In this document: one piece after another, positions 21,544 through 61,509 of the stretch
How the letters are laid out: the number at the start of each line of letters is the position of its first letter
How positions within the stretch are numbered: the first letter of the stretch is position 1
Source of the DNA: Fidelibacterota bacterium
GTDB taxonomy: Bacteria; Fidelibacterota; Marinisomatia; Marinisomatales; TCS55
Direction: 5' to 3'
Length of the DNA stretch: 64,000 bases
NCBI GenBank assembly: GCA_012964665.1
Contig: DTTO01000060.1
Location: 4,522 to 68,521, forward strand
Notes under the pieces: model-generated
Seen by the model: the letters and a program-made list of their open reading frames with translations, nothing else
The model's database searches: none
What the model was told of the DNA's origin: nothing
Translations under genes and position numbers: made by a program

Positions 21544-21575
21544 TTGACCAATCTTCGTAGAGTATTCTATATTTG
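21544..21575 (+). promoter_or_regulatory. candidate promoter of complex I operon 1
   Basis: TTGACC (21544-21549), an 18-nt spacer, then TATATT (21568-21573). The same site reads TATATTTG, matching the TAnnTTTG -7 element of Bacteroidota-type promoters. It lies about 30 nt upstream of the ATG at 21603. Confidence 0.4.
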
Positions 21576-21602
21576 TCGTCTTCAAAAGAGCTTATAAAAT
21601 CA

Positions 21603-25201: not shown

Positions 25202-25206
25202 AACGA

Positions 25207-28635: not shown

Positions 28636-28656
28636 AGTTTTTATAAAGGGTTAGGT

Positions 28657-30204: not shown

Positions 30205-30212
30205 GGAATTTA

Positions 30213-31706: not shown

Positions 31707-31810
31707 CTATAGAATGAAGGAAAGGGGGGATTTAATCATTAATATTTATGATTTTGGATGATTACGAAGTTTCTAATGTCATACAAATACAAATAAATTC
31801 ATGGCTGATT

Positions 31811-32176
31811 ATGATTGAAAATTATTTACCTATCCTAATTGTTTTTATCCTTGCTGCGGGCTTCGTTTTTGTAAGTTTGATACTATCACATTTTGTGGGG
31901 CCACGTATTGACAACAAGGTTAAAATGATGCCTTATGAGTCAGGTGTAGATCCTGTAGGTGAGACCAGGATCAGATTTTCTATCCGATTTTTCCTTATTG
32001 CACTTCTTTTCATTATTTTCGATATCGAAATTGTTTTTCTTTATCCTTGGGCAGTAGTATTCAAAGATTTTCTTACAATGGGATCATTTATATTTTTTGA
32101 GATGGTTGTTTTCCTTTTTATTCTTGCATTTGGTTTTGTTTATGTGTGGAAAAATGGTGCCCTTGAATGGGAATAG
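31811..32176 (+). CDS. nuoA: NADH-quinone oxidoreductase subunit A (operon 2)
   Basis: YESGVDP...FSIRFFLIALLFIIFDIEIVFLYPW. ATG at 31811 gives the usual ~120 aa; the ORF-track start at 31748 adds 21 non-hydrophobic residues. Confidence 0.85.
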   Translation: MIENYLPILIVFILAAGFVFVSLILSHFVGPRIDNKVKMMPYESGVDPVGETRIRFSIRFFLIALLFIIFDIEIVFLYPWAVVFKDFLTMGSFIFFEMVVFLFILAFGFVYVWKNGALEWE

Positions 32177-32204
32177 ATTATTATAATGAAACTGGGAGTA
32201 ATGA

Positions 32205-32696
32205 ATGAACCCCACTGAAATTAAATCAAATATTTTAACCACTACATTAGAGAGTGCCATAAACTGGGGTAGAAAAAATTCGTTTTGGCCCATGCCTTTT
32301 GGTACAGCCTGTTGCGGGATTGAATTCATGGCTGTTTTAGCTGCTCGTACAGACCTGGCTAGATTTGGAGCTGAGGCAATTCGTTTTTCACCGCGGCAGT
32401 CCGATTTACTGATTGTTGCCGGTCGGATTTCCATCAAAATGATGCCGGTTTTGATCCGTATTTATGAGCAAATGCCGGAGCCAAAATGGGTTATTTCCAT
32501 GGGAGCCTGTGCCTCAAGTGGGGGTGTGTTTGATACGTATAGTGTAATTCAGGGGGTAGATCAATTTATTCCAGTGGATGTCTATGTTCCTGGATGTCCT
32601 CCAAGGCCGGAAGGTGTTGTTGAAGGCTTGATGAAACTCCAGGATTTGGTGGGTGAGGAAAAATTGTCTGATTATTCTCCTGCCTCAGACAAGTAA
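32205..32696 (+). CDS. nuoB: NADH-quinone oxidoreductase subunit B (operon 2)
   Basis: [15 protein letters not shown] and VPGCPPRPE. Confidence 0.93.
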
Positions 32697-33212
32697 ATGT
32701 CGCCAGCGACGATAACATCCCAATTAAAAGAAAAATTTCCTGAAGCTATTCTGGATATCACGGAATTTGCAGACGAAAAAATATTGCATATAAAAAGCCA
32801 GCATATATTATTGGTATTAACTGCATTAAAATCAGCTGGTTACAATTTCTTGGCAGACCTCACCGCAATTGATAATCTCACTTTAGGTGGGTTTGAGCGC
32901 TTTGCTGTTTCTTACCATTTATTGTGCCACGAGACGGCGGAGAGATTGACAGTAAAAGCTTATGTTTCTGAAGAAAAACCAACCTTACCTTCGGTAGAAT
33001 CACTTTGGAAAACGGCAGATTGGCAAGAGCGGGAAGTATTTGATTTATACGGAATAATATTTGAAGAACATCCCAATTTGACCCGTATCATGAATCCAGA
33101 TGACTATGAAGGTTACCCCTTGAGAAAGGACTATCCCAGGTTGGGTCGCAAAGAAAGAGATGATTTTCCTGTGGTTAATCGTGGCATACGAAAAAAGAAA
33201 CCATTAGAATGA
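32697..33212 (+). CDS. nuoC: NADH-quinone oxidoreductase subunit C (operon 2)
   Basis: WQEREVFDLYGIIFEEHP motif. Confidence 0.9.
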   Translation: MSPATITSQLKEKFPEAILDITEFADEKILHIKSQHILLVLTALKSAGYNFLADLTAIDNLTLGGFERFAVSYHLLCHETAERLTVKAYVSEEKPTLPSVESLWKTADWQEREVFDLYGIIFEEHPNLTRIMNPDDYEGYPLRKDYPRLGRKERDDFPVVNRGIRKKKPLE

Positions 33213-34414
33213 ACAGAGTAACTGAACAGCCGATTGAAACTGATAAAATGGTGCTCAATTTTGGACCGCAGCATCCATCGACGCATGGTACGCTTAGAAT
33301 CATTATGGAATTAGAAGGAGAGACAGTAAAAAAAGCCACACCGGAAATTGGATTTCTTCATTCTGGATTTGAAAAACTAGGTGAAGATTTGGATTTCAAC
33401 CAATATATCACCATTACAGATCGAATGAATTATCTGTCGCCTCTATGTAATAATGTGGCATATGCCTTGGCGGCAGAAAAATTAATGGATCTAAAAGTGT
33501 CCAAACGGACGGAGTATATACGTGTTTTAATGTGTGAATTAAGTCGAATTGCCGATCATCTATTAAATGTGGGTATGCTGGCCGTGGATTTGGGTGCACT
33601 GACTGCTTTTCTTTATGGATTCAGGTTAAGGGAAGACATTTATGATCTTTTTGAAATAGCTACTGGAACTCGATTAACGACCAGTTATACGTTAGTAGGT
33701 GGTTTAATGAGAGATATTCCAGATGGATATGATAAGGCTGTCATTAAAGTGCTCGACGAAACGGTTGAAGTAACGAATGAAATTGAAACATTATTGAATA
33801 AAAATAGAATTTGGCAAGATAGAACAAAAGATATTGGTAGTATTTCCAAAGAGGATGCTATTTCATATGGTATCTCGGGTCCCATGGCAAGAGCATCAGG
33901 TATTGATTGGGATATTAGAGTAAACGAACCACCGTATTCCAGTTATGAGGATTTTGATTTTGACGTAGCTATAGCTTTGAACGGCGATGTATTTGATCGG
34001 TACCTAGTGCGTATGGAGGAAATTCGCCAAAGTATAAAGATATGTAGGCAGTCACTAGATAAAATGCCAACTGGAGATGTAAGTATTGATCCAGATTTGG
34101 GGTTTAGCCTCCCTCCAAAAGATGAAGTTTATAACTCTATTGAGGGTTTGATTTATCATTTTGAAGTTACCATGCCAAACAGAGGCATGACACCACCAGT
34201 TGGTGAAGCCTACGTACCCACGGAATCACCTAATGGTGAGTTAGGATTTTATATTGTAAGTGATGGAACCCGTACACCCTATCGTGTTCGAACAAGGCCA
34301 CCATCACTGATGAACTATTCAATATTTTCAAAGCTAATTGAAGGCCATATGCTTTCAGATGTTCCAGCGATACTTGGAAGTTTTAATGTTATCGCAGGAG
34401 AATTGGATCGATGA
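33209..34414 (+). CDS. nuoD: NADH-quinone oxidoreductase subunit D (operon 2)
   Basis: NFGPQHPSTHGTLR ... SFNVIAGELDR. 401 aa. Confidence 0.93.
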   Translation: MNRVTEQPIETDKMVLNFGPQHPSTHGTLRIIMELEGETVKKATPEIGFLHSGFEKLGEDLDFNQYITITDRMNYLSPLCNNVAYALAAEKLMDLKVSKRTEYIRVLMCELSRIADHLLNVGMLAVDLGALTAFLYGFRLREDIYDLFEIATGTRLTTSYTLVGGLMRDIPDGYDKAVIKVLDETVEVTNEIETLLNKNRIWQDRTKDIGSISKEDAISYGISGPMARASGIDWDIRVNEPPYSSYEDFDFDVAIALNGDVFDRYLVRMEEIRQSIKICRQSLDKMPTGDVSIDPDLGFSLPPKDEVYNSIEGLIYHFEVTMPNRGMTPPVGEAYVPTESPNGELGFYIVSDGTRTPYRVRTRPPSLMNYSIFSKLIEGHMLSDVPAILGSFNVIAGELDR

Positions 34415-34902
34415 AATCCAACGGTAAACCCAAGCCAAGATTTACTTTCGAAGACCCGGAAAGAGTAGAACAAATTTTTTCCCAGTATCCAGATAAAAAA
34501 TCTGCCACTCTGCCGTTGCTTCATTTAGCGCAATCGCAGGAGGGCTATATTTCAAATAGTGTAATTGATAGTATTGCTGAATTGGTTGACTGTCACCCAG
34601 CTGTTGTGATGGACTGTGTATCTTTTTATACCATGTTTTATACAAAACCTCATGGTCGAAATATCATTCAAATTTGCCAGACTCTTTCCTGTAGCTTAAA
34701 TGGCGCCGATGAATTGGTAGATCATGTAACGGATAAATATAAAATTAAGCCTGGTGAAACAACGGCCGATGATCAGTTTACTCTTATGAAAGTTGAATGC
34801 TTAGGCTCTTGTGGAACTGCGCCGGTTGTACAAATGAATAAAGAATATCATGAAAGTTTAACTAAACAAAAATTTGATGAATTACTTGCGGAATTTGAAT
34901 GA
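34411..34902 (+). CDS. nuoE: NADH-quinone oxidoreductase subunit E
   Basis: Thioredoxin-like 2Fe-2S cysteines in QICQTLSCSL and VECLGSCGTAP. Confidence 0.9.
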   Translation: MKSNGKPKPRFTFEDPERVEQIFSQYPDKKSATLPLLHLAQSQEGYISNSVIDSIAELVDCHPAVVMDCVSFYTMFYTKPHGRNIIQICQTLSCSLNGADELVDHVTDKYKIKPGETTADDQFTLMKVECLGSCGTAPVVQMNKEYHESLTKQKFDELLAEFE

Positions 34903-36197
34903 ATACGTTTAAACCAGTTCTCACAGAGCATATCGATCAAAAAGATTGTCATACGCTTTCATTTTACAAGAGTATTGGGGGATATACTGCTTTAGAAAAA
35001 GTGCTGACAATGAACCCTGATCATGTTACGCAAGAAGTGAAAGATTCAAACCTTCGTGGTAGAGGCGGTGCAGGTTTTTCAACCGGTATGAAATGGGGGT
35101 TTATTCCTAAGGATTCCAATAAACCTAAATATCTGATCAATAACGCGGACGAAAGTGAACCAGGGACTTTTAAGGATCGATTGCTGATGAATAAAGCACC
35201 GCATCAAATGTTGGAAGGTATGATCATTGCTGCATATGCTATCGGCTGCCATACATCCTTCATTTACATTCGTGGAGAATTTTATCAAGAATACAAATTA
35301 TTGGAACAAACGATAGCGGAAGCATATGATAATAACATACTGGGCCAAAATATTCTTGGTTCAAATTATAGTTTAGATGTTGTGATCCATCGTGGAGCGG
35401 GAGCTTATATATGCGGTGAGGAAACCGGGTTGCTTGAATCTCTTGAGGGTAAACGGGGCTGGCCAAGAATTAAGCCACCTTTCCCAGCTATCGAAGGTTA
35501 TCTCCAAAGTCCTACAATAGTAAATAATGTTGAAACCCTGTCTTGCCTTCCTCATATTATAAATCGTGGTGCCAGTTGGTTTAAATCTATCGGCCCTGAA
35601 AAAGGTCCAGGCCCGAGACTGTTTTGCATTTCAGGATCCGTTAATAATCCCGGCGTTTTTGAAGAACCTATGGGTGTCTCTCTAAAAGATTTGATTTTTG
35701 ATAGGGCAGGCGGTATACCAGATGACAAACAATTAAAAGCAGTTTTCCCTGGCGGTTCATCATCAGCGATTCTCACGGCCAATGAAGCTATGGATGTGAT
35801 GATGGATTTTGAGGAACTCGTAGAAAAGGGAAGTATGCTGGGATCAGCGGGGATCATTGTTATGGATGAAACAGTAAATATGGTGCAGGCTTGTCTCAAT
35901 ATCGCGCGTTTTTATGCTCATGAGTCCTGTGGTCAATGCACGCCCTGCAGGGAAGGAACTTCCTGGCTGGTGATGATGCTCACACGTTTAATTAATGGTG
36001 GTGGCAAACCAGGTGATATCGACATGCTTTTTGAGATCGCCGATAATATTGGTGGTCTTATCGATTTTTCAAAAGGAAGCTTTGGTAAGACTATTTGTCC
36101 ATTCGGTGAAGCAGTTGCTTGGCCAGTAAGAAGTTTTGTGGAAAAGTTTAAAGGCGAATTCATGGAATATTTGCCTCAAGAAAAGGTAGTTGCCTGA
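34899..36197 (+). CDS. nuoF: NADH-quinone oxidoreductase subunit F
   Basis: FMN/NADH site GRGGAGFSTGMKW, NADESEPGTFKDR, and N3 cluster ESCGQCTPCREG. Confidence 0.95.
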   Translation: MNTFKPVLTEHIDQKDCHTLSFYKSIGGYTALEKVLTMNPDHVTQEVKDSNLRGRGGAGFSTGMKWGFIPKDSNKPKYLINNADESEPGTFKDRLLMNKAPHQMLEGMIIAAYAIGCHTSFIYIRGEFYQEYKLLEQTIAEAYDNNILGQNILGSNYSLDVVIHRGAGAYICGEETGLLESLEGKRGWPRIKPPFPAIEGYLQSPTIVNNVETLSCLPHIINRGASWFKSIGPEKGPGPRLFCISGSVNNPGVFEEPMGVSLKDLIFDRAGGIPDDKQLKAVFPGGSSSAILTANEAMDVMMDFEELVEKGSMLGSAGIIVMDETVNMVQACLNIARFYAHESCGQCTPCREGTSWLVMMLTRLINGGGKPGDIDMLFEIADNIGGLIDFSKGSFGKTICPFGEAVAWPVRSFVEKFKGEFMEYLPQEKVVA

Positions 36198-37783
36198 TGC
36201 CACTATTAAAAATAGATGGTAAGGAAATTGAGATAAAAAGTGGTACCACAGTGCTGCAAGCAGCTGAAGCCAATGGTATTGAGATACCCTACTACTGTTA
36301 CCATCCTGCTCTGGAGATTGTGGGCAGTTGCCGCATGTGTTTAGTGCAGGTGGAGGGGATGCCCAAGTTGCAAGTATCATGCAACACTTTTGTTAGCGAT
36401 GTTTCTTCAGATCGTAAAGTAGATGGTAAGTATGATATGGTGGTGCATACACAGAATGATCTCGTTGTTCAAGAGAGAAAAAATATACTGGAATTCCTAC
36501 TTTTAAATCATCCACTTGATTGTTCCGTATGTGACCAGGCTGGTGAATGTTATCTTCAAGACTACTCTTTTAAATTTGGAAATGCTCATAGTCGATTTGA
36601 CGAAAATAAAAGGGTACGTCCAAATGAATTTCTAGGTTCCCAGATCGTTATTAATCATAACCGCTGTATTATGTGCAGCCAATGTGTCCGGTTTACGCAA
36701 GAGATTTCAGGTACCAGTGAATTATTTGTTGAAGCACGAGGATACAACTCAAAAATAGCAGTTCTGGAAGACAACCCCCTTGATAATCTTTTGGCCGGTA
36801 ATGTTGCGGATATTTGTCCGGTAGGTGCATTATTAAGTACTGACTACATCCATAAGAATCGTATCTGGAACCTGAAAAAGCAACCATCTGTATGTCAGGA
36901 TTGCAGTGTTGGGTGTAATGTTGATGTGTTTTCTCAAACAGATCAAATTTTACGATTAACAGCAAGAGAGAATCTTGATGTTAATGGTTACTTCATGTGT
37001 GATATTGGGCGATATGGTTTTCATCGTTATGAAGAAATCGATCGGGTTCTCCAGCCCATGGTTCGAAAGGGTGATTCATTTGTATCTGCCGATTGGGAAA
37101 CAGCGATTCAAAAAACAATTGATTTAATAAAGAAAAACAAAAGCAATACCGCTGGTATTGTGTCCCCCTTCCATACCAATGAATCGAATTTTTTACTTGG
37201 GCAAATATTTAAAGATGTTTTGGGCTCGCTCCCACCAATAACAGGTGAAGAGATCACTTACCCATCAGGATTTCGGATCAGTGCCGATCGTTCACCAAAT
37301 ACCAGGGGAATGAATGATATTTGCGAAGGAATAGTAGAAGACCTGGCAAGTAAAATTAAAACGCAGGATATTCGTACTTTATTTATTTTGGATGATGGTG
37401 TAGATAGGAAATTAGATGATAAGTGGAAAAAGATTATTGGGAAGATGGATTCTGTTATTGTCTTGAGCTATGCCATGACAGATTTGGCCAAGTTAGCCCA
37501 TGTTGTTCTGCCAGGACATGCACCATTGGAGCGGGAGGGGACCATTACTAATGACAAAGGCAGAATTCAATGGTTACGTCCATCCTTACCCGTAAAAGTC
37601 GAATCGAAGCCAGATTGGGAAATATTAATGTTGGTTAGAAATGCCCTCGATAAAAAGACAGAGCACTTTGTTGAACTAGGTGAAGTAATGAAAAAAATGG
37701 GTGAAAAATTTGAAAATTACGCTGGCATTACATTTTTCAAAGTTGGAAATCAAGGTTATTCAATAAACGGTAAAAGCAGTTGA
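36197..37783 (+). CDS. nuoG: NADH-quinone oxidoreductase subunit G (short form, 528 aa)
   Basis: 2Fe-2S CYHPALEIVGSCRMC, HPLDCSVCDQAGEC and CIMCSQCVRF. The molybdopterin-like C-terminal part is shorter than in enterobacterial NuoG. Confidence 0.9.
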   Translation: MPLLKIDGKEIEIKSGTTVLQAAEANGIEIPYYCYHPALEIVGSCRMCLVQVEGMPKLQVSCNTFVSDVSSDRKVDGKYDMVVHTQNDLVVQERKNILEFLLLNHPLDCSVCDQAGECYLQDYSFKFGNAHSRFDENKRVRPNEFLGSQIVINHNRCIMCSQCVRFTQEISGTSELFVEARGYNSKIAVLEDNPLDNLLAGNVADICPVGALLSTDYIHKNRIWNLKKQPSVCQDCSVGCNVDVFSQTDQILRLTARENLDVNGYFMCDIGRYGFHRYEEIDRVLQPMVRKGDSFVSADWETAIQKTIDLIKKNKSNTAGIVSPFHTNESNFLLGQIFKDVLGSLPPITGEEITYPSGFRISADRSPNTRGMNDICEGIVEDLASKIKTQDIRTLFILDDGVDRKLDDKWKKIIGKMDSVIVLSYAMTDLAKLAHVVLPGHAPLEREGTITNDKGRIQWLRPSLPVKVESKPDWEILMLVRNALDKKTEHFVELGEVMKKMGEKFENYAGITFFKVGNQGYSINGKSS

Positions 37784-38817
37784 TGGATTTATTAGGTTTT
37801 ACAATTATTCTTGTTAAAGTGTTGGTCGTATTTGCAGCTACCATGCTCGGTGTGCTTGTGATGATTTATGCGGAAAGGCGTGTTTCTGCTTTTATGCAAG
37901 ATAGAGTTGGTCCCAACCGTGTCGGACCCAAAGGAGTACTGCAGCCCATTGCGGACGGCATCAAATTTTTAATGAAGGAGGATTTAGTTCCAGAAAAAGT
38001 CGATAAACCTATTTTTATTCTTGCTCCTGCAATCCTTCTGATTCCAGCGCTAATGACCTTTGCAGTGATTCCATTTGGTTCTTCCATTAACCTTTTTGGA
38101 CGGGAGATCGCTCTTCAAGTAGCTGATGTAAACGTGGGTGTTTTGTATATCCTTGCGCTTACTAGTATTAGTGTTTATGGTATTGTGTTGGCAGGATGGT
38201 CTTCCAATAATAAATATTCTTTACTCGGAGGTTTACGTTCTTCTGCCCAGCTAATCAGTTATGAATTAGCGATGGGATTAGCAGTGGTTAGTATTATTCT
38301 CTTGGCGGGATCGTTGAGATTAAATGATATTATTACTGATCAGCAGGGTTCGTTTTTTTCTTGGAATATTTTTAGACAGCCGCTGGCTTTCCTCATATTT
38401 CTTATTGCCGTTTATGCCGAAACCAACCGATTGCCCTTTGATCTTTCAGAAGCAGAACAAGAATTGGTTGGTGGATACCACACCGAATACAGCAGCATGA
38501 AATTTGCCATGTTCTTTATGGCTGAATATGCCAATATGATTACAGCTGCAGCCCTAACTGTGACGCTGTTCTTCGGAGGTTGGGATGTTCCCTTATTAGA
38601 TGAAGGCTCTTTGGGTTTGTTTGGTACGTTGCTATCGGTACTGTCGTTTTTATTGAAAATGGCATTTTTTTTATTTCTGTTTATTTGGGTTCGGTGGACA
38701 TTCCCACGTTTTCGTTATGATCAGCTGATGCGACTTGGCTGGAAAGTGATGCTACCGTTAGCTCTTTTTAATATTTTCCTCACAGCCGGATATCTCACTT
38801 TAAAGGCATTAGGCTGA
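37780..38817 (+). CDS. nuoH: NADH-quinone oxidoreductase subunit H (operon 2)
   Basis: FMQDRVGPNRVGP and YAETNRLPFDLSEAEQELVGG. Confidence 0.93.
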   Translation: MMDLLGFTIILVKVLVVFAATMLGVLVMIYAERRVSAFMQDRVGPNRVGPKGVLQPIADGIKFLMKEDLVPEKVDKPIFILAPAILLIPALMTFAVIPFGSSINLFGREIALQVADVNVGVLYILALTSISVYGIVLAGWSSNNKYSLLGGLRSSAQLISYELAMGLAVVSIILLAGSLRLNDIITDQQGSFFSWNIFRQPLAFLIFLIAVYAETNRLPFDLSEAEQELVGGYHTEYSSMKFAMFFMAEYANMITAAALTVTLFFGGWDVPLLDEGSLGLFGTLLSVLSFLLKMAFFLFLFIWVRWTFPRFRYDQLMRLGWKVMLPLALFNIFLTAGYLTLKALG

Positions 38818-39353
38818 TGGCAACAATAGTCAAGTCTTACGAGCCTACTTTTTGGGATAAGTTGTACCTGCCGGCTTTGATGCGTGGACTAATTGTGACC
38901 TTTCGTCATTTTTTCCGTAAGAACGTCACCATCCAATATCCTGACCAAAAGCACATACCTCCCGAGGGATACAGGGGCTTGCATCGCTTAAATAAGTATC
39001 CGGAGGGTCGAATTAAATGTGTGGCCTGTGAAATGTGTTCTGCCGCATGTCCCGCAGACTGTATTCATATTATTCCAGGTCCTTCACCTTGGGATGGAGG
39101 AAAAGAAAGATACCCAGTACGGTTTGACATTGATTTGTTACGATGCATTTTCTGTGGTTTTTGCGAAATGGCCTGTCCAGAAGAAGCAATTGAGTTGACA
39201 GAGATTTATGATTTTTCCGATTATACACGGGATGATTTAGTTATTGATAAAGAAGGCCTTCTGGAAGTTTATGATCTAACCAAAGATCAAAACTATTACA
39301 CCAAAAAAAATCTAAGTAAAGCCTCTTCTGTCAATACATCTATAGATACCTAA
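38817..39353 (+). CDS. nuoI: NADH-quinone oxidoreductase subunit I (operon 2)
   Basis: CVACEMCSAACP and CIFCGFCEMACP ferredoxin motifs. Confidence 0.92.
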   Translation: MATIVKSYEPTFWDKLYLPALMRGLIVTFRHFFRKNVTIQYPDQKHIPPEGYRGLHRLNKYPEGRIKCVACEMCSAACPADCIHIIPGPSPWDGGKERYPVRFDIDLLRCIFCGFCEMACPEEAIELTEIYDFSDYTRDDLVIDKEGLLEVYDLTKDQNYYTKKNLSKASSVNTSIDT

Positions 39354-39365
39354 AAACATAAACTC

Positions 39366-39866
39366 ATGTCATTATCGCTATTATTTTACTGCGTAGCTGC
39401 AATTACAATTGGATCAGCTGTTTTTGTTGTATTGAATCGAAATGCCGTATACAGTGCTATTGCATTAGTCCTTTGCTTTTTTTCTTTGGCAGTTATTTAC
39501 CTTCTTTTGGAGGCATATGTTATCGCTGTATTAGAAATTTTTATTTATGCCGGTGCTATCATGGTGTTATTCCTTTTTGTGATCATGTTACTCAACCTGG
39601 GCAAGGAGGATGCCTTGCCAAACCTTAATTATTTACAGCGAGCTACATCGCTACTTTTGGTGCTTCTTTTCTTTGTTGGAATTTTTATAGTAATGATAGG
39701 TGATCAAGGATTATTGCATCAGCCGACTGAGCAATTTTTAGCTGGGGGAATTTATCCATTAGGAGAAGCGCTCTTTTCAAAATATTTATTACCTTTTGAA
39801 ATTGCTTCACTATTATTACTTGTTGCGTTAATTGGAACAGTCTATTTAGCGAAAAGAAAAGTATAA
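39366..39866 (+). CDS. nuoJ: NADH-quinone oxidoreductase subunit J (operon 2)
   Basis: 166-aa 5-TM protein in the J position. [14 protein letters not shown] and [12 protein letters not shown]. Confidence 0.85.
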
Positions 39867-40171
39867 TGATTGTGCCCCTTGAACATGTTGTTGTGTTGAG
39901 TTTGATCATTTTTTCCATTGGTGTTCTAGGCGTTTTATTTCGGCGTAATGCTATTACTATTTTTATGTCTATTGAACTTATGCTAAATGCGGTCAACCTA
40001 GCTCTGGTCGGTTTTTCTCGTTATTATAATAGTGTAGACGGCCAAGTCTTTGTCTTCCTTGTTATGACATTGGCTGCAGCTGAGGTAGCAGTAGGGCTGG
40101 CAATTATTATCGCTCTTTATCGGAATCGCCAGACGGTAAATATTGATGAAATTAATTTGATGAAGAATTAG
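39866..40171 (+). CDS. nuoK: NADH-quinone oxidoreductase subunit K (operon 2)
   Basis: 101 aa with 3 TM helices. [10 protein letters not shown] and [12 protein letters not shown]. Confidence 0.9.
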
Positions 40172-40180
40172 AAAGTAATC

Positions 40181-41674
40181 GTGGACACTATTGTATCCAT
40201 AAAGCCTCTTCTGGCAGTTCTCGTCTCTTCTATAGGAGCCTTGTTTATAATTGGTACTGGGAAAAAACCAAACTTGAGGGAATCTTGGTCTATTATTGCA
40301 GGTGTTTTAAAACTTATAATTATTTTATCTATGATTCCGGCTGTTGTTTATGATAAAAAGATAATTTCCTATTCACTTTTTAATATTCTGCCTGGAATCG
40401 AGATTGGCTTTAGGGTTGATGCCTTTGGTCTATTATTCGCAATGGGTGCTTCCATACTTTGGATTGCAACTTCCTTTTATTCGATTGGATATATGCGATC
40501 GACCAATGAGCACTCGCAAACACGTTATTTTACCTGTTTTGCAGTAGCGCTTTCGGCCACAATAGGCGTTGCATTTTCAGCGAATCTCTTTACGATGTTT
40601 CTTTTCTATGAAGTTTTAACAATCATTACTTACCCATTAGTGGCGCACAAAGGTACTTCAGAAGCAAAAGCAGGTGGAAGGAAGTATGCCATTTATTTAC
40701 TTGGAGCAGCCAAAGCTTTCTTGGTCGCAGCTATCATCCTTACTTATAATCTGACAGGTACACTTGAGTTTTCCAAAGACGGAATTTTTCCTGCCATTAT
40801 TCAGTCAGCAAATCCTGAATTGCTTTATATTATTTTTATCCTTTTTCTTTTTGGATTTGCAAAGAGTGCTATCATGCCTTTGCACAGTTGGCTTCCAGCC
40901 GCGATGGTTGCTCCCACACCAGTCAGTGCACTGCTTCATGCTGTTGCCGTTGTCAAAACAGGAGTTTTTACTCTGCTTCGTGTTATATTTTTTGTTTTTG
41001 GCGCAGAATTGATGTTGGACATTGGTGTAGATGTGTTCATAATCACATTTGCATCGGTTACCATAATCGCTGCCTCTATTATTGCTCTGAGCATGGATAA
41101 CCTGAAGGCGCGGTTGGCTTTTTCGACAATCAGCCAACTTTCTTATATTATTTTGGGTGCTGCATTGCTTACACCAAGCGCAATGGTAGGAGGTATAATT
41201 CATATTACTAATCATGCCTTTTCAAAGATTACTCTCTTTTTCTGCGCTGGTTCAATTTATGTTTCATCCCATAAGACCGAAGTCAGCCAGCTAAGCGGGA
41301 TCGGGAAAAAAATGCCTTGGACAATGGCGGCCTTTGCTTTGGCCACTTTAAGCATGATTGGTGTTCCGCCTGCATCGGGATTTATTACAAAATGGTATCT
41401 TGTTATTGGTTCTCTGGAACGAAATAGTTTGGTTGTACTTACTGTATTGCTGGTAAGCTCGTTTTTGAATGCGGCATACTTTGTTCCAATTCTATATAAG
41501 GCGTTTTTCAAAAAAGAAAATTCAAATTCTGAAGAGGAAATTTCACTTCAAGATAAAAATTTAAAAGAGAATCCATTCCTGGTAGTTCCGCTAACGTTAA
41601 CTGCTATAGTAAGTGTTTTTCTGGGACTATACCCTGACTTTATTGTGCATATAGCTGAAATGGTGGTCAAGTGA
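40181..41674 (+). CDS. extra antiporter-like subunit: NuoL/MrpA-class core without lateral helix (annotatable as monovalent cation/H+ antiporter subunit D family)
   Basis: YSIGYM, FLFYEVLTIITYPLV, AKSAIMPLHSWLPAAMVAPTPVSALLHAVAVVKTGVF, NHAFSKITLFF and GFITKWY. 497 aa, ending soon after the core. GTG start 9 nt after the nuoK stop. Confidence 0.8.
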   Translation: MDTIVSIKPLLAVLVSSIGALFIIGTGKKPNLRESWSIIAGVLKLIIILSMIPAVVYDKKIISYSLFNILPGIEIGFRVDAFGLLFAMGASILWIATSFYSIGYMRSTNEHSQTRYFTCFAVALSATIGVAFSANLFTMFLFYEVLTIITYPLVAHKGTSEAKAGGRKYAIYLLGAAKAFLVAAIILTYNLTGTLEFSKDGIFPAIIQSANPELLYIIFILFLFGFAKSAIMPLHSWLPAAMVAPTPVSALLHAVAVVKTGVFTLLRVIFFVFGAELMLDIGVDVFIITFASVTIIAASIIALSMDNLKARLAFSTISQLSYIILGAALLTPSAMVGGIIHITNHAFSKITLFFCAGSIYVSSHKTEVSQLSGIGKKMPWTMAAFALATLSMIGVPPASGFITKWYLVIGSLERNSLVVLTVLLVSSFLNAAYFVPILYKAFFKKENSNSEEEISLQDKNLKENPFLVVPLTLTAIVSVFLGLYPDFIVHIAEMVVK

Positions 41675-41916
41675 AATTATTGGATCTAATACAATTTTTG
41701 AGCACAAAGACAGTTAAAAAAATTGCATACTCTGTGCTGGTGTTACTCATTGCAGTTGATTTTATTATCCCTCGCCATGAAATTCACTTTTTTGGAGATA
41801 AAATTCCCGGTTTCTGGTCTCTATTCGGTTTTATCGCCTGTGTATTAATTATTATCGTTTCCAAATGGATAGGCCATATGGGGCTTATGAAGGACGAGAA
41901 TTATTATGATAAGTGA
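41671..41916 (+). CDS. 81-aa two-TM membrane protein of unknown function embedded in complex I operon 2
   Basis: Hydrophobic helices IAYSVLVLLIAVDFII and FWSLFGFIACVLIIIV. GTGA overlap upstream and an 11-nt overlap downstream, indicating translational coupling. Confidence 0.6.
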   Translation: MKLLDLIQFLSTKTVKKIAYSVLVLLIAVDFIIPRHEIHFFGDKIPGFWSLFGFIACVLIIIVSKWIGHMGLMKDENYYDK

Positions 41917-43702
41917 AATTGCTAATATTCAATTTTTGCATCCTTCAGTATTTTATATCCTAGGAGGCCTATTAATTCCCTTTTTAAAGGGAAGAGTTAA
42001 GCAAGGCTATATGCTTTTTGTTTCTCTTTTGGCTTTTTTTGCGGTAGTCAATCTGCCGTACGGTACATTTGGTGCCTATGAATTCCTCAGCTGGAAATTG
42101 ACATTTTTAGAGGTGGATAAGCTGAGCAAAGTGTTTGCATATATATTCACAATAATGGGTGTTATCGGCGTAATATATTCTATCCATGTAAAGAATGACG
42201 GTGAGCATTTTTCTGCATTTTACTATGTTGGTGGATCTCTTGGAGTAATATTTGCAGGCGATTTCCTGACTTTATTCCTTTTCTGGGAAATGATGGCTTT
42301 TTCTTCTGTTTTTCTTATATGGTTTCGAAAATCAAAATCTTCTCTTGATTCTGGCTTTAGATATCTATTATGGCATGTTGCTGGTGGATTAATATTGTTG
42401 GCTGGAATCATGTTGCAGTACTCGGTAAGCGGTGATTTATCAGTCCAGTATTTACCCTTTCATGGTTGGTGGCCAACCGACTTACAAAGCCTGGCTTCAT
42501 TCCTTATTGTAATTGGGTTTATTGTAAATGCAGCCGTACCTCCATTTGGTGCGTGGCTTCCTGATGCCTATCCCGCTGCAACAGTTACAGGTGCAGTATT
42601 TATGAGTGCCTTCACGACGAAAACAGCCGTATATGCCCTGATCCGAGTATGTGCAGGTTCCGAAATGTTAATTGTTCTGGGTGTTGTTATGGCGATTTAC
42701 GGCGTTGTTTATGCGGTACTTGAAAACGATGCCCGCAGGCTTCTGGCATATCACATTATCAGCCAGGTGGGATATATGGTAGCTGGTGTTGGGCTGGGTA
42801 CCCCGATGGCAATAAACGGTGTTGTGGCTCATGCTTTTTGTCATATCTTATATAAGTCCCTTTTATTTATGGGTACCGGTTCTGTTTTATATGTCACAGG
42901 AACGGCAAAGTTGACGGAGCTTGGTGGTCTTTATAAGACCATGCCAAGAACAATGATTTATACTGTAATCGGTGGTCTTTCTATTTCTGCATTTCCTTTG
43001 TTTAGTGGTTTTGTGAGTAAATCCATGACAGTCACTGCTTTTGGTGAAGCGCATTTGACTTGGGCGTTTATGGCACTTATGCTCGCTTCTGCAGGGACAT
43101 TTTTACATACCGGTCTTAAGGTACCCTATTTTATCTGGTTTGGTAAAGATCAGGGTTTAAAAGCCAAAGAGCCACCGTGGAATATGGAATTAGCCATGGG
43201 AATAGGAGCGCTTTTTTGTATTGGACTCGGGATTTTTTATAAACCACTGTACGCCTTACTGCCGCATGCAGTCCATTTTGAGCCTTATACGGCATATCAT
43301 ACCTGGGAGACTTTGCAGGTATTGCTTTTTACACAGCTTGGCTTTTTCCTGCTACTTAAAAAGCTCTGGTGTGAAGACACCATCTCTCTGGATACAGACT
43401 GGTTTCCTCGCAAAGGAGCAAAAGCTTTCATGTGGATTACAAAACCGCTGGCAAAAATTGAGTACAAATTTGTTGGTGAGATTTATGAATTTATTATTCA
43501 AAAACCGATCATGGGCACAGCCAAGGTTTTTAAGATAATAGATACGGTTGTTGTGGATGGAGCGATGAATGGATTAGGAAAATTAACCCTAGCTTGGAGC
43601 CGAAAGATACAGAATGCTCAAAGTGGTCAAATTCAACATTATGCAATGTATATGGTCGCCGGTTTCATTGCCTTGATTATAGTTATTATGGTGTTACCGT
43701 AA
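41906..43702 (+). CDS. NuoL-position subunit: MrpD/NuoN-class antiporter core fused to a NuoL-type TM15/lateral helix/TM16 C-terminus
   Basis: AGDFLTLFLFWEMM, WLPDAYPAATVTGAVFMSAFTTKTAVYALIRV, AHAFCHILYKSLLF and GFVSKSM. C-terminus GEIYEFIIQKP...IDTVVVDGAMNGLG...AQSGQIQHY plus a terminal TM helix. 598 aa. Confidence 0.8.
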   Translation: MISEIANIQFLHPSVFYILGGLLIPFLKGRVKQGYMLFVSLLAFFAVVNLPYGTFGAYEFLSWKLTFLEVDKLSKVFAYIFTIMGVIGVIYSIHVKNDGEHFSAFYYVGGSLGVIFAGDFLTLFLFWEMMAFSSVFLIWFRKSKSSLDSGFRYLLWHVAGGLILLAGIMLQYSVSGDLSVQYLPFHGWWPTDLQSLASFLIVIGFIVNAAVPPFGAWLPDAYPAATVTGAVFMSAFTTKTAVYALIRVCAGSEMLIVLGVVMAIYGVVYAVLENDARRLLAYHIISQVGYMVAGVGLGTPMAINGVVAHAFCHILYKSLLFMGTGSVLYVTGTAKLTELGGLYKTMPRTMIYTVIGGLSISAFPLFSGFVSKSMTVTAFGEAHLTWAFMALMLASAGTFLHTGLKVPYFIWFGKDQGLKAKEPPWNMELAMGIGALFCIGLGIFYKPLYALLPHAVHFEPYTAYHTWETLQVLLFTQLGFFLLLKKLWCEDTISLDTDWFPRKGAKAFMWITKPLAKIEYKFVGEIYEFIIQKPIMGTAKVFKIIDTVVVDGAMNGLGKLTLAWSRKIQNAQSGQIQHYAMYMVAGFIALIIVIMVLP

Positions 43703-43712
43703 TTGGAGAAAT

Positions 43713-45278
43713 ATGGAAGATATTATTATTAATAATCTTGATTATCCAGTTCTGACGGTGAGCACTTTTCTGCCAATGGCGGGAGCCCTTATTATACTTT
43801 TCCTCAAAAGAGGGCCTTTCATCAAATGGTTTGCGCTGGCGACGACAGTTGCAACATTCATTGTTTCATTGCCTATTTATAAGCATTTCGATAAAACGAC
43901 TTATAAGATGCAGTTTGTCGAAATCTATTCTTGGATACCAACATGGAATATAAACTACAAGGTTGGTGTGGATGGTATTAGCGTATTATTTATAATTCTA
44001 GTCACAATTTTAAGCATTCTTTGTGTATCTGTTTCTTGGAAGGCGATCAAGGAAAAAACGAAAGAGTTTTACATTTCTCTATTAATAATGGAAACTGCGA
44101 TGATTGGGATTTTTGTATCATTGAATATGTTTCTTTTCTACCTTTTTTGGGAACTGACCCTCATTCCGATGTTTCTTTTGATAGGCGTGTGGGGAGGTCC
44201 ACAAAGGATATATGCCGCATTGAAGTTTGTCCTTTTTATGCTGGCTGGTAGTGTTCTGATGCTTGTGGGAATAATTGTGCTCTACTATGCAGGTGGGAAA
44301 ACCTTTGATATACTGGAACTTTCTAAAGTGAACTATCCCGCAGGAACACAACTATGGTTATTTCTGGCTTTTTTTGCCGCTTTTGCAGTTAAAATGCCCA
44401 TGTTTCCATTTCATACCTGGTTACCAGATGCTCATACAGAAGCGCCTACGGCCGGCAGTGTTATCCTGGCAGGTATTTTGCTTAAAATGGGTGCATACGG
44501 TTTTTTAAGGTTTTCTTTTCCCATGTTTCCCCATGCCGTAAATGTACTTTTTATACCATTACTTATTTTGTCTGTTACGGCGATTATATACGGTGCCTAT
44601 GTTACCTTGATGCAGAAAGATATGAAGAGATTGATCGCCTATTCTAGTGTCAGCCATATGGGCTTTGTAACACTTGGCCTTTTTACTTTAAATCAAAACG
44701 GAATTGAAGGTGGTATCCTTCAAATGATTAATCATGGTGTGATAACCGGTGCACTGTTTTTGTGTGTCGGAATGATTTATGAGAGAACGCATTCAAGGAT
44801 GATTGAAGACTATGGGGGGCTGTCAAAGACTGTTCCGGTCTTTATTGTATTTTTTTCGATTTTTACTTTGGCAGCGATCGGTCTCCCAGGTATGAATGCT
44901 TTTGTTGGGGAATTCCTTATTATTAGTGGTGCTTTTAAAGCCAATATGATTATTGCCGCCTTTTCCATTCTTGGTGTTGTTCTAGGTGCGTGTTATATGG
45001 TTTGGCTGTATTACCGAGTGGCTCTTAATGAAATAAATACAACTACACAATCCTCTCTTGTTGATTTGGATTTGCGGGAAATTGCCACCCTCGCACCTTT
45101 AGTTTTGCTTGTGTTAATAATTGGACTGCAACCGAACATTCTTTTGAGTTATATGCATGTATCAGTGGAACACCTGATTGAGCAACTGCATAACTCTATA
45201 ATACTTGAAAATATTAACGCTTATGACACTGTCAGCTCAATTGCTGAATATGTTAAGGCTTTATTCAAATGGGCCTGA
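43713..45278 (+). CDS. nuoM: NADH-quinone oxidoreductase subunit M (operon 2)
   Basis: YLFWELTLIPMFLLIGVWGGP and VKMPMFPFHTWLPDAHTEAPTAGSVILAGILLK. Confidence 0.92.
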   Translation: MEDIIINNLDYPVLTVSTFLPMAGALIILFLKRGPFIKWFALATTVATFIVSLPIYKHFDKTTYKMQFVEIYSWIPTWNINYKVGVDGISVLFIILVTILSILCVSVSWKAIKEKTKEFYISLLIMETAMIGIFVSLNMFLFYLFWELTLIPMFLLIGVWGGPQRIYAALKFVLFMLAGSVLMLVGIIVLYYAGGKTFDILELSKVNYPAGTQLWLFLAFFAAFAVKMPMFPFHTWLPDAHTEAPTAGSVILAGILLKMGAYGFLRFSFPMFPHAVNVLFIPLLILSVTAIIYGAYVTLMQKDMKRLIAYSSVSHMGFVTLGLFTLNQNGIEGGILQMINHGVITGALFLCVGMIYERTHSRMIEDYGGLSKTVPVFIVFFSIFTLAAIGLPGMNAFVGEFLIISGAFKANMIIAAFSILGVVLGACYMVWLYYRVALNEINTTTQSSLVDLDLREIATLAPLVLLVLIIGLQPNILLSYMHVSVEHLIEQLHNSIILENINAYDTVSSIAEYVKALFKWA

Positions 45279-45347
45279 CAAACTTATTCTATCATTTTTT
45301 AGGCATTATTTTAATGGTACTTAATTCGAAATGTGTCAGGTGATTTC

Positions 45348-46802
45348 ATGGACATAGCTCAATTTTTCACATCGGCTGATTTATACGGTATTGCTCCTGA
45401 AATTATTCTGACGATTACAGCCTTATCTGTCTTAACGCTTGAGATGTTTCATGTTTTCCGCTCCAAAATTATATTAATGGTGGCAGCACTTGGTTTACTT
45501 TTGGCCAGTTCTGTTGTTATTAATACCATCAGCGATGAACGGATTCTTTTCGGAGGGATGTTGGTCCTCAGCCGGTATTCAGCATTTTTTGATTCTCTTT
45601 ATATTTTCATTGGGCTTATAACCTTGATTTTTTCCCATGGATATATGGAAAAAAAAGGGGGTCGTACTCGAGGAGAATACCCAGCACTTATCATTTTTGC
45701 AGTTATCGGCATGATGTTAATGACGCGGGCAAATGATTTGGTAATTGTTTTTCTGGGATTAGAATTGCTTTCGCTATCCCTGTATGTATTAGTTGGATTT
45801 CTGCGTCATGATGATCTTAGTAATGAATCAGGTTTAAAATACTTGTTGCTCGGTGCTTTTGCTACTGGCTTTTTCCTATTTGGTGCGGCCATCACTTATG
45901 GTGCAACTGGCACAACCAACTATAGCGGGATCATTTTGGCGATCACTAATGATACCATCCTCTCCAGTACTTATTTATCACTGGGTATTGGGCTATTACT
46001 TATTGGCTTTGCATTCAAAGTTGCATTGGCACCTTTTCATATGTGGTCTCCAGATGTTTACCAGGGGGCTCCAACTACAGTGACTGGTTTTCTATGCACA
46101 GCGCCCAAGGCTGCAGGATTTGGGGCGCTGTTAATATTATTTAACCGTGCTTTTGTCGAAATCCATTATCAATGGCAGGATATATTTTGGATTTTGGCTG
46201 CTTTAACCATGACTGTTGGTAATATTTCTGCACTAGTACAGTCTAATGTCAAGCGAATGCTTGCGTTTTCCAGTGTTTCCCACGCTGGGTTTTTGGTAAT
46301 AGGAGTGTTAGTATTAGATGAAACGAGCATTTCAGCAGTCCTATTTTATCTAGTCGTTTACTCAGTTATCAATTTAGGTGCATTTGCCATTGTTTCAGCT
46401 GTGGAGACAGAAAAAGAAGGATTAGTATTTGAAGATTACCGCGGATTGGCAGCAAAGCATCCTTGGCTTTCAGCAGCGATGACTATTTTTATGCTATCCC
46501 TGGCCGGATTTCCACCAACAGCTGGATTTGTCGCCAAATATGGGCTTTTATCTGCTGCTGTGGCAAAAGGATATATTGGGCTTGTTGTGATAGGTGTGCT
46601 CAATACGCTGCTTTCAATCTATTATTATCTTCGCCTGGTAGTAAATATGTACATGCAGAAAGAAGAAAGAGCGATACTCCCATCTTATGGTATGGTATTA
46701 ACTGGTCTTATTGGTATTATGGCAATTTTGATGATTATCCTGGGAATTATACCTGGTTATCTTTTAGAAATCGCTGCGAAAGCTGCAATTTTTACATCCT
46801 GA
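45348..46802 (+). CDS. nuoN: NADH-quinone oxidoreductase subunit N (operon 2)
   Basis: FKVALAPFHMWSPDVYQGAPTTVTGFLCTAPKAAGF. ATG at 45348, with an alternative GTG at 45333. Confidence 0.9.
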   Translation: MDIAQFFTSADLYGIAPEIILTITALSVLTLEMFHVFRSKIILMVAALGLLLASSVVINTISDERILFGGMLVLSRYSAFFDSLYIFIGLITLIFSHGYMEKKGGRTRGEYPALIIFAVIGMMLMTRANDLVIVFLGLELLSLSLYVLVGFLRHDDLSNESGLKYLLLGAFATGFFLFGAAITYGATGTTNYSGIILAITNDTILSSTYLSLGIGLLLIGFAFKVALAPFHMWSPDVYQGAPTTVTGFLCTAPKAAGFGALLILFNRAFVEIHYQWQDIFWILAALTMTVGNISALVQSNVKRMLAFSSVSHAGFLVIGVLVLDETSISAVLFYLVVYSVINLGAFAIVSAVETEKEGLVFEDYRGLAAKHPWLSAAMTIFMLSLAGFPPTAGFVAKYGLLSAAVAKGYIGLVVIGVLNTLLSIYYYLRLVVNMYMQKEERAILPSYGMVLTGLIGIMAILMIILGIIPGYLLEIAAKAAIFTS

Positions 46803-46858: not shown

Positions 46859-47908
46859 TTGAATCGTAAATACTTAATATTTGTTTTCCAAATAATGTTG
46901 GGCATTTTTGTCCTTTTCTTTGGTGTAGGCTGCAGCCAAAACAAAGAATATGTAGAATTCACCGGCAAAACAATGGGCACGACATACAATATTCGAATAG
47001 TACCAAATCGGAATATGAAGTGGAAACTAGAAGAAGCTCAAATAAAAATTGATTCAATCCTATTAGAAATTGATCAACAAATGTCAACTTATAAATGGAA
47101 CAGTGAAATTTCATTGTTTAATCAAGCAAATATTAATGAAGAAATTAAAATATCTGCAGGGTTTCAAAAAGTGCTGGAAAAAGCTTTGTATTGGGGTGAA
47201 AAAACAAACGGTGCCCTGGATGTCTCGGTCATGCCCTCTATTGTAACTTGGCGAAAAGGCTTTGTAGATAGTTTTGAATCCGAATGGAAACCGCCTTTGA
47301 TTGGTGAGATAATATCGGCAAAGGATAAAGTGGGTTATGCCAAAGTCCTCTTGAGAGGGAATATATTAATCAAGGTTTTTAATGGACAAATGATTGACTT
47401 GAGCGCCATTGCCAAAGGGTGGGGCGTGGATCAATTATTTGAATTATTTCGTAATTTAGGTGTTTCAAACTTCATGGTTGAGGTAGGGGGAGAAGTTCGC
47501 ACGATGGGAACAAATATCAAAAAAGAGAAGTGGAAAATTGGTATTGATACACCCATTCCAGACACTGTGCCTGGAGAAAATATTTTTAAAGTAGCGGTAC
47601 TTGAAAATCAGGCGATAGCAACATCAGGTAATTATCGGAATTTTTACACATTTAATGACAAACGTTTTTCCCATATTATCGATCCCAGAACAGGTTATCC
47701 AGTTGAAACTAATATTGCTTCGGTCACAGTTTTAGGCCTCAATTGTATGGACACAGACGCCTTGGCGACAGCACTTTCAGTATTAAATTTTAACGAGGGG
47801 AAAGCGTTAATCGAATCTCTAGATGGTTTTGAAGCGCTATGGATTATAAAAGAAGAAGATGGCGTTTTAAAATCCCAATCAACTTCTGGAATGGCCACGA
47901 TTAATTAA
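46859..47908 (+). CDS. apbE: FAD:protein FMN transferase (ApbE family lipoprotein)
   Basis: Lipoprotein signal ...FFGVGC, then MGTTYNIRI, ATSGNYRNFY and FSHIIDPRTGYP motifs. TTG start. Confidence 0.85.
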   Translation: MNRKYLIFVFQIMLGIFVLFFGVGCSQNKEYVEFTGKTMGTTYNIRIVPNRNMKWKLEEAQIKIDSILLEIDQQMSTYKWNSEISLFNQANINEEIKISAGFQKVLEKALYWGEKTNGALDVSVMPSIVTWRKGFVDSFESEWKPPLIGEIISAKDKVGYAKVLLRGNILIKVFNGQMIDLSAIAKGWGVDQLFELFRNLGVSNFMVEVGGEVRTMGTNIKKEKWKIGIDTPIPDTVPGENIFKVAVLENQAIATSGNYRNFYTFNDKRFSHIIDPRTGYPVETNIASVTVLGLNCMDTDALATALSVLNFNEGKALIESLDGFEALWIIKEEDGVLKSQSTSGMATIN

Positions 47909-48092
47909 CAAAGGTACATCTAACAATTTATGTTGAATCAAAAATGAATATCATTATTTGGAAGATGTTTTTATATCGATTAATTTCCCCTCCTTCGAGT
48001 TAAGCTTTAAGTAAAAAAAACTTTTCAAACATGCAACAAAATTACATTAATATACTATTTTTCAGTTCCCCTGGAAATGGAAGCAAGATAGG

Positions 48093-58820: not shown

Positions 58821-58828
58821 GAGAAAAC

Positions 58829-61499: not shown

Positions 61500-61509
61500 T
61501 AAATACGAT

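Follow-up and report, generated by a model that had tools for sequence, protein, structure and literature searches.

A three-gene Mrp-type cassette in the place of nuoL in a green-type complex I operon of a Marinimicrobia bacterium

The stretch of DNA analysed here (64,000 nucleotides, hereafter the window) belongs to a Fidelibacterota bacterium from the Marinimicrobia (assembly GCA_012964665.1, contig DTTO01000060.1, positions 4,522 to 68,521 of the forward strand). It carries a nuo operon of the 14-subunit type, designated below as operon 2, in which the interval between nuoK and nuoM is filled, according to the table of open reading frames (ORFs), by a triplet of genes encoding two antiporter-like proteins of 497 and 598 amino acids (aa) and a small protein of 81 aa (ORF497, ORF598 and ORF81, Table 1). 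The original prediction, made by a model from the sequence alone, proposed that these three genes replace a single nuoL and bring the number of antiporter-like subunits to four. Our data are in line with this proposal: no other nuoL was found among the ORFs of operon 2, both large proteins match the Pfam family Proton_antipo_M, and neither of them reaches the models of NuoL, NuoM or NuoN. With the NuoL models ORF497 and ORF598 obtained 201 and 175 bits for NF005141 (cut-off 556) and 191 and 162 bits for TIGR01974 (cut-off 407.5). The best overall explanation, to which we would give roughly three chances in four, is that the single NuoL was replaced by a portable three-gene cassette of Mrp type, so that the enzyme would possess four antiporter-like subunits.

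Coordinates, sizes and start codons of the three genes given in the original prediction coincide exactly with the ORF table, the motifs it cited were all found in the translated ORFs, and the junctions it described were read again on the DNA. A 9-nt gap separates the TAG codon of nuoK from the GTG codon of ORF497, ORF497 and ORF81 share a GTGA overlap, the overlap of ORF81 and ORF598 comprises 11 nt (ATGATAAGTGA), and the 10-nt gap between ORF598 and nuoM includes GGAG. The three genes are translationally coupled. GC content is level throughout the region of the triplet, and a scan of the operon for promoters and terminators gave counts no higher than in shuffled sequence. The residue of transmembrane helix (TM) 12 in the NuoM of operon 2 is Glu, like in canonical NuoM.

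Table 1. Features of operon 2 and of the gene triplet between nuoK and nuoM (positions in the window)
Feature	Position	Strand	Evidence
nuo operon 2, 14-subunit type: nuoA-B-C-D-E-F-G-H-I-J-K-[497]-[81]-[598]-nuoM-nuoN	31748..46802	+	ORFs; NuoM and NuoN models
nuoK of operon 2, upstream neighbour of the triplet	39866..40171	+	ORF table
ORF497, helix-less antiporter-like subunit, 'MrpD1' of green-type complex I, GTG start	40181..41674	+	NF006236; pSymA orthologue
ORF81, small two-TM protein, GTG start	41671..41916	+	conserved position; pSymA orthologue
ORF598, lateral-helix-bearing antiporter-like subunit, 'MrpD2', ATG start	41906..43702	+	NF009310; pSymA orthologue
Codon of Asn208 in ORF598, position of the TM7 lysine	42527..42529	+	alignments; translation check
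NuoL-like lateral helix and TM16 of ORF598 (residues 522-598)	43469..43699	+	local alignments; tail model; translation check
nuoM of operon 2	43713..45278	+	NF004499, 620 bits (cut-off 585); TM12 residue E400
nuoN of operon 2	45333..46802	+	TIGR01770, 427.6 bits (cut-off 332.6)

ORF497 passes the NCBIfam equivalog NF006236 (PRK08375.1-1, 'putative monovalent cation/H+ antiporter subunit D') with 695.8 bits at a cut-off of 663. It consists of the 14-TM core only, as residues 27-485 align to residues 23-481 of the 510 residues of MbhH, and this core-only alignment bears out the prediction that the protein ends before TM15, the lateral helix and TM16. MbhH was also its top match in the Protein Data Bank (PDB, 145 bits), followed by NuoL, ND5, NdhF and MrpA (122-130 bits), and by class the PDB scores decreased from NuoL (122 bits) to NuoM (90 bits) and NuoN (84 bits). 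In a neighbour-joining (NJ) tree, which is crude and carries no support values, the family of ORF497 is sister to NuoL and HyfD. The signature H-x-x-T-M-V of helix VIII, specific for MrpA and NuoL (PMC4938563), is represented in ORF497 by two residues out of four (His253 and Val258), and the score with Proton_antipo_N (19.1 bits) is under the cut-off of 24.5. The presence of His253, the ranking of PDB matches and the position in the tree all agree with the class NuoL/MrpA assigned to this protein from the outset. A duplicate of NuoM was considered as another candidate and rejected, since TIGR01972 gave 198 bits at a cut-off of 263.8, the PDB scores with NuoL exceeded those with NuoM, and the tree placed the protein with NuoL and HyfD. 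The residues of the proton axis are complete in an alignment of 18 sequences (E144, K228, H253, K259, K349 and K404), E144 being the Glu of TM5, K228 the Lys of TM7, H253 and K259 the residues of TM8 and K404 that of TM12; K228, K259 and K404 are invariant across 79 family members. Judged by this set, ORF497 is a putative additional pump subunit fully equipped along the proton axis.

ORF598 passes end to end the NCBIfam equivalog NF009310 (PRK12668.1, 'Na+/H+ antiporter subunit D') with 714 bits at a cut-off of 564, and proteins 100% identical to it occur in metagenome-assembled genomes (MAGs) of Candidatus Marinimicrobia. The best PDB sequence match of its core was MrpA (136 bits), followed by MrpD, MbsH' and MbhH, while core-only scores with Nqo12, E. 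coli NuoM and E. coli NuoL were 101, 81 and 73 bits, respectively, and the lowest ones (57-67 bits) were registered with NuoN. The core had been predicted to belong to the class of MrpD, NuoM and NuoN. Of this assignment the kinship with Mrp stands; the class of NuoM and NuoN was rejected by the NJ tree and by the core-only scores, in which Mrp and Mbh proteins stay well above NuoL and NuoM, the last two being about alike, and NuoN is in the last place. The core constitutes a separate, deeply branching clade, and its nearest relatives are MrpA, MrpD and MbhH. No match to Proton_antipo_N was obtained for ORF598, and the signature of helix VIII is represented by none of its four residues.

Along the proton axis of ORF598, E128, K239 and K372 are in place, but residue 208 is Asn, and it occupies the site of the TM7 lysine (K229 in NuoL, K234 in NuoM and K217 in NuoN of E. 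coli). In alignments Asn208 faces the TM7 lysine of MrpA, MrpD and MbhH, and the 18-sequence alignment agrees. The lysine is kept by every other antiporter-like protein aligned alongside ORF598, that is by NuoL, NuoM, NuoN, HyfB, HyfD and HyfF of E. coli, the five Nuo pumps of the window, ORF497, MrpD and a paralogue of ORF598 encoded in an Mrp-type operon. The same division holds within the family: Asn was found in 85 of 85 relatives of ORF598 associated with complex I, and Lys in all 74 scorable paralogues from Mrp operons. K229 of NuoL was termed 'universally conserved', and weaker proton pumping was reported for the K229A mutant (PMC4938563, citing Nakamaru-Ogiso 2010). The other axis residues of ORF598 (E128, K239, H309, H313, K317, K372 and K405) are invariant across three phyla.

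The C-terminal parts were compared by motif-anchored counts and local phmmer alignments, since a global MAFFT alignment of these regions contained too much noise, the helix-bearing proteins being distant from one another. ORF598 is colinear with NuoL (residues 57-593 with 56-603 of Nqo12, and 69-597 with 80-612 of E. coli NuoL). Its AlphaFold2 (AF2) model, with a predicted local distance difference test score (pLDDT) of 70, contains TM15 (463-487), a lateral helix (HL) in two segments (501-516 and 522-571) and TM16 (577-596), and the top ranks of its Foldseek search were taken by full-length chains of NuoL, NdhF and MrpA. Residues 522-596 align to residues 623-699 of P. denitrificans NuoL (E = 9e-7) with two 1-aa gaps, and the tail aligns without gaps to residues 580-651 of T. 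elongatus NdhF1, so that the NuoL-type lateral helix and TM16 recognized by the original prediction are well supported. No helix insertion of ~26 aa was found in these alignments, and their nearly gapless character with three-pump enzymes means that the helix of ORF598 has the canonical NuoL length. The number of residues after the shared motif DxDW has a median of 104 in complex-I-type ORF598 proteins and of 79 in the Mrp-operon paralogue, which is 25 aa shorter. A hidden Markov model of the complex-I-type tail scored the tail of NuoL from the other nuo operon of the window (operon 1) with 32 bits and the tail of the Mrp-operon paralogue with -0.8 bits, and a PDB search with the latter tail gave no match. 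The cores of the two types score 551 bits mutually and at most 138 bits with anything else. It is possible, as far as such comparisons can tell, that a NuoL helix was grafted onto the complex-I version of ORF598; alternatively, the Mrp version may have been shortened and diverged. Of the 'swapped domain make-up' proposed earlier, the NuoL-like tail of the complex-I version is retained and the core of NuoM/NuoN class is not, and this make-up is already present in the Mrp-operon paralogues.

ORF81 had been described as a two-helix protein without recognizable motifs, and indeed no Pfam or NCBIfam family was found for it; at E <= 10 Pfam returned only noise (AzlD, E = 0.05). Among 1.84e9 representatives, however, 498 clusters (50% identity) match ORF81 at E <= 1e-3. 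The best 150 of these 498 clusters were all short (41-201 aa), and no fusions were found among them. The two large genes are separated by a gene of this type in all informative Mrp-type loci and in nearly all loci of the complex-I type. Both subfamilies keep D30, H36, K65, an aromatic-rich YGF..C stretch and an acidic C-terminal LMRxEDYYD, and a hairpin with both ends inside is probable by positive-inside reasoning. ORF81 can be considered, from this conservation, as a family in its own right and the putative third subunit of the cassette, which bears no family name.

The search of plasmids by tblastn gave full-length matches of ~54% on symbiotic megaplasmids of Sinorhizobium, Ensifer and Rhizobium. 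On pSymA of S. meliloti nuoJ and nuoK are followed by three genes, whose products are a 487-aa 'antiporter subunit D family protein', a protein of 84 aa annotated only as 'hypothetical protein' and a 586-aa 'Na+/H+ antiporter subunit D', and then by nuoM, nuoN and nuoA-G, with nuoH and nuoI on the opposite strand. The three products are orthologous to ORF497 (52% identity), ORF81 (43%, E = 8e-23, at the matching position) and ORF598 (54%). The enzyme encoded there has been published as the green complex I of rhizobia, where NuoL gives way to two MrpD-like subunits, of which MrpD2 bears the helix HL (Degli Esposti & Martinez-Romero 2016, according to the summaries in PMC9040806 and PMC7415380); ~70 alphaproteobacteria possess it, and its gene order is peculiarly rearranged (PMC7415380). 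So far green complex I has been described in silico and by expression, not biochemically; up-regulation has been reported for bacteroids of S. meliloti or R. etli. The arrangement in the window, supposed to be undescribed, is therefore of a described kind, and operon 2 would represent green-type complex I in a different phylum and with canonical gene order. Both versions have the orthologous triplet in the same order between nuoK and nuoM-nuoN, both contain nuoE, nuoF and nuoG, and in both the second large subunit has Asn in TM7 and a lateral helix without the 26-aa insertion. They differ in the succession of the remaining genes, which is canonical from nuoA to nuoN in the window and J-K-x-x-x-M-N-A-B-C-D-E-F-G with inverted H and I in rhizobia, and in the host, which is a free-living marine bacterium in one case and a nodule symbiont in the other. 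In the literature citing the original descriptions we found no mention of the small subunit, the Asn in TM7, the origin from an Mrp operon with its 25-aa shorter helix or the canonical helix length; the primary papers of 2016 and 2018 may hold some of these points.

To estimate the spread of this module one genome per species was scanned, which revealed 454 genomes with a relative of ORF598, and synteny was analysed for the best 80 of them. The order K-497-81-598-M-N was found in every informative locus of these 80, and so it is common rather than exceptional. It covers three phyla, Marinimicrobia, Rhizobiales and Thermodesulfobacteriota in the naming of our sample, and recurs in ~19 Marinimicrobia MAG contigs, independent of one another, and in ~60 genomes from other phyla. 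Wherever the contig includes the upstream flank and nuoK was detected there (in locus L044 it was not), nuoK directly precedes the triplet. Marinimicrobia have the canonical order from A to N and Rhizobiales the rearranged one, the latter seeming peculiar to rhizobia and not inherent in the replacement of the subunit. Thermodesulfobacteriota are represented by Desulfoferrobacter, whose operon is an 11-subunit form without nuoE and nuoF, and by one MAG. Identity of the membrane-arm subunits of operon 2 with those of S. meliloti green complex I (52% for NuoM, 42% for NuoN, 47% for NuoI and 48% for NuoH) is higher than with operon 1 of the same window (40% for NuoM, 36% for NuoN and 29% for NuoI). 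The greater proximity of operon 2 to the rhizobial enzyme than to its own neighbour is consistent with lateral transfer.

The origin of the triplet became apparent from a related MAG (L020). Its second cluster contains genes for MnhE, MrpF, MrpG, one MbhD/MbhE-like protein, MnhB, NuoK-like MrpC and a 491-aa MrpD, followed by a triplet that encodes paralogues of ORF497 (49% identity) and ORF598 (46%) and, between them, a 103-aa protein of the ORF81 family. A metagenome scan with the 598-type protein of L020 gave 554 relatives, and the 10-gene order mrpE-F-G-[MbhD/E-like]-B-C-D-[497-like]-[81-like]-[598-like] was observed in essentially every sufficiently long locus. L020 and 80 metagenome loci (L084-L163) contain the Mrp-type operon with the triplet at its end. 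Thus, in an Mrp-type operon the same three genes stand at the end, which fits the predicted derivation of the module from Mrp. In the NJ tree the 598 proteins of complex-I type and of Mrp type are reciprocally monophyletic sisters, lying deep and outside NuoL, NuoM and NuoN. MrpA is the best solved sequence relative of ORF598, and the Mrp antiporter and green-type complex I have in common the principle of a lateral-helix clamp (Mrp structure: Steiner & Sazanov 2020, PMC7419157). They differ in the TM7 lysine kept by the Mrp-operon paralogue, in its tail, unrelated in sequence, and in the surroundings, since the genes mrpB, mrpC, mrpE, mrpF and mrpG accompany the paralogous triplet and none of them was found in the 64-kb window. 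The triplet may be viewed, by its sequence and gene order, as a portable cassette common to green-type complex I and an irregular Mrp operon resembling those of 'group 3' (Ito et al. 2017, PMC5703873). In a sister lineage, NP141 (L084-L086 and L020), a whole 10-gene Mrp-type operon with its own 497, 81 and 598 paralogues is situated between nuoM and nuoN of the green-type operon. In L004, a 97%-identical relative of the window, an mrpD-like gene and a 497 paralogue lie ~4 kb downstream of nuoN, where the locus ends. The window itself is devoid of the Mrp-type operon found in L004 and the NP141 lineage.

Other enzymes with replaced or additional pumps are similar only in part. In Complex_I_3 of 'Ca. 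Manganitrophaceae' an MrpD-like pair related to the rhizobial one also replaces NuoL, with HL in MrpD2 (Yu, Chadwick et al. 2022, PMC9040806), but with its two NuoM this enzyme reaches five pumps, and the helix of its MrpD2 is extended by an insertion of 26 aa, while operon 2 encodes a single NuoM and a canonical-length helix. The 2M complex I of Nitrospira possesses a second NuoM and a 26-aa insertion in the NuoL helix (Chadwick et al. 2018, as given in citing papers, PMC9040806). It shares with operon 2 the number of four antiporter-like subunits; the distinction drawn from it in the original prediction holds, as ORF497 is not NuoM-like and fails the NuoM model, and ORF598 has no insertion in the helix. 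Hyf of E. coli offers another parallel, since its helix-bearing HyfB is not of the L class and its helix-less HyfD is, and the nearest NCBIfam models besides their own are HyfD for ORF497 and, second after the MrpD-type model, HyfB for ORF598. However, their scores (224 bits for ORF497 and 197 bits for ORF598) are far below the cut-offs of 430 and 667, and no hydrogenase context is present. As for canonical NuoL/ND5, its architecture of a 14-TM core, TM15, lateral helix and TM16 is found in ORF598 and not in ORF497, while by sequence (NF005141 and TIGR01974) neither protein belongs to this group.

Orthology and synteny of the triplet, its occurrence in Mrp operons, the residue patterns and the helix length are observed directly; how the four antiporter-like subunits would be arranged can be proposed only tentatively. 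Genetic linkage and the NuoL-like helix suggest that the three proteins assemble with the Nuo subunits. ORF598, possibly a chimera of an Mrp-type core devoid of the TM7 lysine and a genuine NuoL helix with TM16, would occupy the NuoL site beside NuoM and take the architectural role of NuoL, contributing the core, TM15, the lateral helix clamping the arm and TM16. Its helix would lie over NuoM and NuoN with TM16 docked as usual, and ORF497 would be bolted on beyond it at the tip, outside the clamp, being tethered by ORF81. An extra pump in the arm could raise the ion/electron ratio, or else give reverse electron flow a greater driving force, and ORF598, because its TM7 lysine is replaced by Asn, may translocate ions differently or not at all. 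As to the order of the two large subunits, we lean slightly towards the distal position of ORF497. With the canonical length the helix of ORF598 would span only two neighbours. The distal position of ORF497 is supported by the helix series, where a helix shorter by 25 aa goes together in the Mrp paralogue with a single conventional neighbour, as well as by the tail of ORF598, which resembles NuoL rather than the paralogue. The replacement of Lys by Asn is located on the proximal face of ORF598 and confined to the complex-I context, which suggests that the proximal neighbour is different in the two systems (NuoM versus MrpD).

Several points weigh against this scheme. To our knowledge, the helix-bearing subunit is the most distal one in every solved relative (complex I, NDH-1, Mrp and MBS), and we know of no pump beyond the clamp. 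ORF497 shows just those L-class features that are expected of a neighbour of NuoM, while ORF598 beside the TM12 Glu of NuoM would join two acidic residues without a lysine. In the AF2 model pLDDT is below 50 over residues 487-532 and 560-586, and the distance from TM15 to TM16 is 93 aa in ORF598 versus 79 aa in E. coli NuoL; the helix-length argument depends on the anchor chosen.

A serious alternative, somewhat less probable, is the order N-M-497-598. In this case ORF497 would be inserted between NuoM and ORF598, the latter would remain the most distal subunit with its helix spanning ORF497 and NuoM, and TM16, perhaps together with ORF81, would dock one subunit short of the NuoN/NuoK site. 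In ORF497, whose core is of NuoL/MrpA class, the TM5 Glu and TM7 Lys would be paired with the TM12 Glu of NuoM as they are in NuoL, and its TM12 Lys404 could compensate for the TM7 lysine missing in ORF598. The TM15-TM16 linker of ORF598, longer than that of E. coli NuoL by 14 aa, also speaks for such an order, and so does the distal location of the helix-bearing subunit in solved structures (PMC7419157). On the other hand, the alignment of HL and TM16 to NuoL and NdhF1, both from three-pump enzymes, is almost gapless, while four- and five-pump enzymes needed an insertion of ~26 aa (PMC9040806). Their NuoL-like sequence implies that canonical docking partners were retained, and the complex-I-specific change of Lys to Asn is unexpected if ORF497 is the neighbour of ORF598 in both contexts.

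It is rather unlikely that ORF598 acts mainly as a non-pumping clamp and ORF497 takes over the pumping of NuoL, which would leave the ion count about canonical. The strict distribution of Asn and Lys between complex-I-type and Mrp-type proteins and the reported decrease of pumping in K229A for a residue held to be universal both point in this direction. Yet the remaining axis residues are invariant across three phyla, unlike those of a decaying channel, and Asn is polar and could still relay protons via water.

Quite improbable is a separate Mrp-like Na+/H+ antiporter which is merely co-transcribed with a complex I lacking NuoL. The names given by NCBI and JGI (antiporter subunit D), the location of the paralogues in true Mrp-type operons and the NhaD antiporter gene just downstream may be adduced in its favour. 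Nevertheless, the genes of its other subunits are missing from the window, every informative locus, in all three phyla, has the triplet strictly between nuoK and nuoM, and the NuoL-like helix with TM16 is specific to the nuo-embedded copies. We also know of no complex I without a helix-bearing subunit. Finally, an assembly artefact joining an Mrp locus to the nuo operon, towards which the metagenomic source is only a weak pointer, can be practically dismissed, since finished rhizobial replicons and numerous independent MAG contigs show the same layout, stop and start codons overlap at the junctions, and GC content is flat.

In the window operon 2 is preceded by another complete complex I operon, located head to tail on the same + strand at a distance of 41 nt (21573-31706 and 31748-46802). 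This operon 1 encodes 11 subunits (nuoABCDHIJKLMN, without nuoE, nuoF and nuoG), which share 29-49% identity with their paralogues from operon 2. Its NuoL (26581-28635) is canonical but long (684 aa) and contains an internal duplication of ~27 aa in the lateral helix (28396-28557), where residues 606-632 and 633-659 align to one and the same segment of NdhF1. Four-pump 2M enzymes are reported to show this signature, but operon 1 contains a single nuoM, and no spare antiporter-like gene that could partner this elongated NuoL was found in the 64-kb window. The mechanical ORF of nuoI from operon 1 (25075-25791) starts at TTG and overlaps nuoH by 127 nt; the true start is probably the internal ATG near 25204 (MKKYF...). 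Directly after nuoN of operon 2 (46859-49409) there are genes of an ApbE FAD:protein FMN transferase and of the NhaD Na+/H+ antiporter, which may hint at a link to sodium energetics. Elsewhere in the window, a 684-aa ORF (8637-10691) has no Pfam family at E <= 1e-5, and a cytochrome c maturation cluster with ccmE, ccmF/nrfE-like, ccmA, ccmB and ccmC occupies positions 58796-63478.

The family provides natural experiments, which include a helix-bearing subunit without the 'universal' TM7 lysine, a small conserved subunit and a fourth pump that is perhaps out of reach of a canonical-length helix. Since cultivable rhizobia carry the same module, they can be tested there. A pump outside the clamp, if true, would bear on the need for the lateral helix in energy transmission along the arm and would represent an architecture unseen in any solved relative. 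For Marinimicrobia themselves, the 14-subunit complex I of mesopelagic representatives has been treated as 'canonical' and laterally acquired (PMC6143742). By its genes this enzyme is of the four-pump green type, which could alter the energy yield, or the reverse electron flow, estimated for a globally abundant group of the deep ocean.

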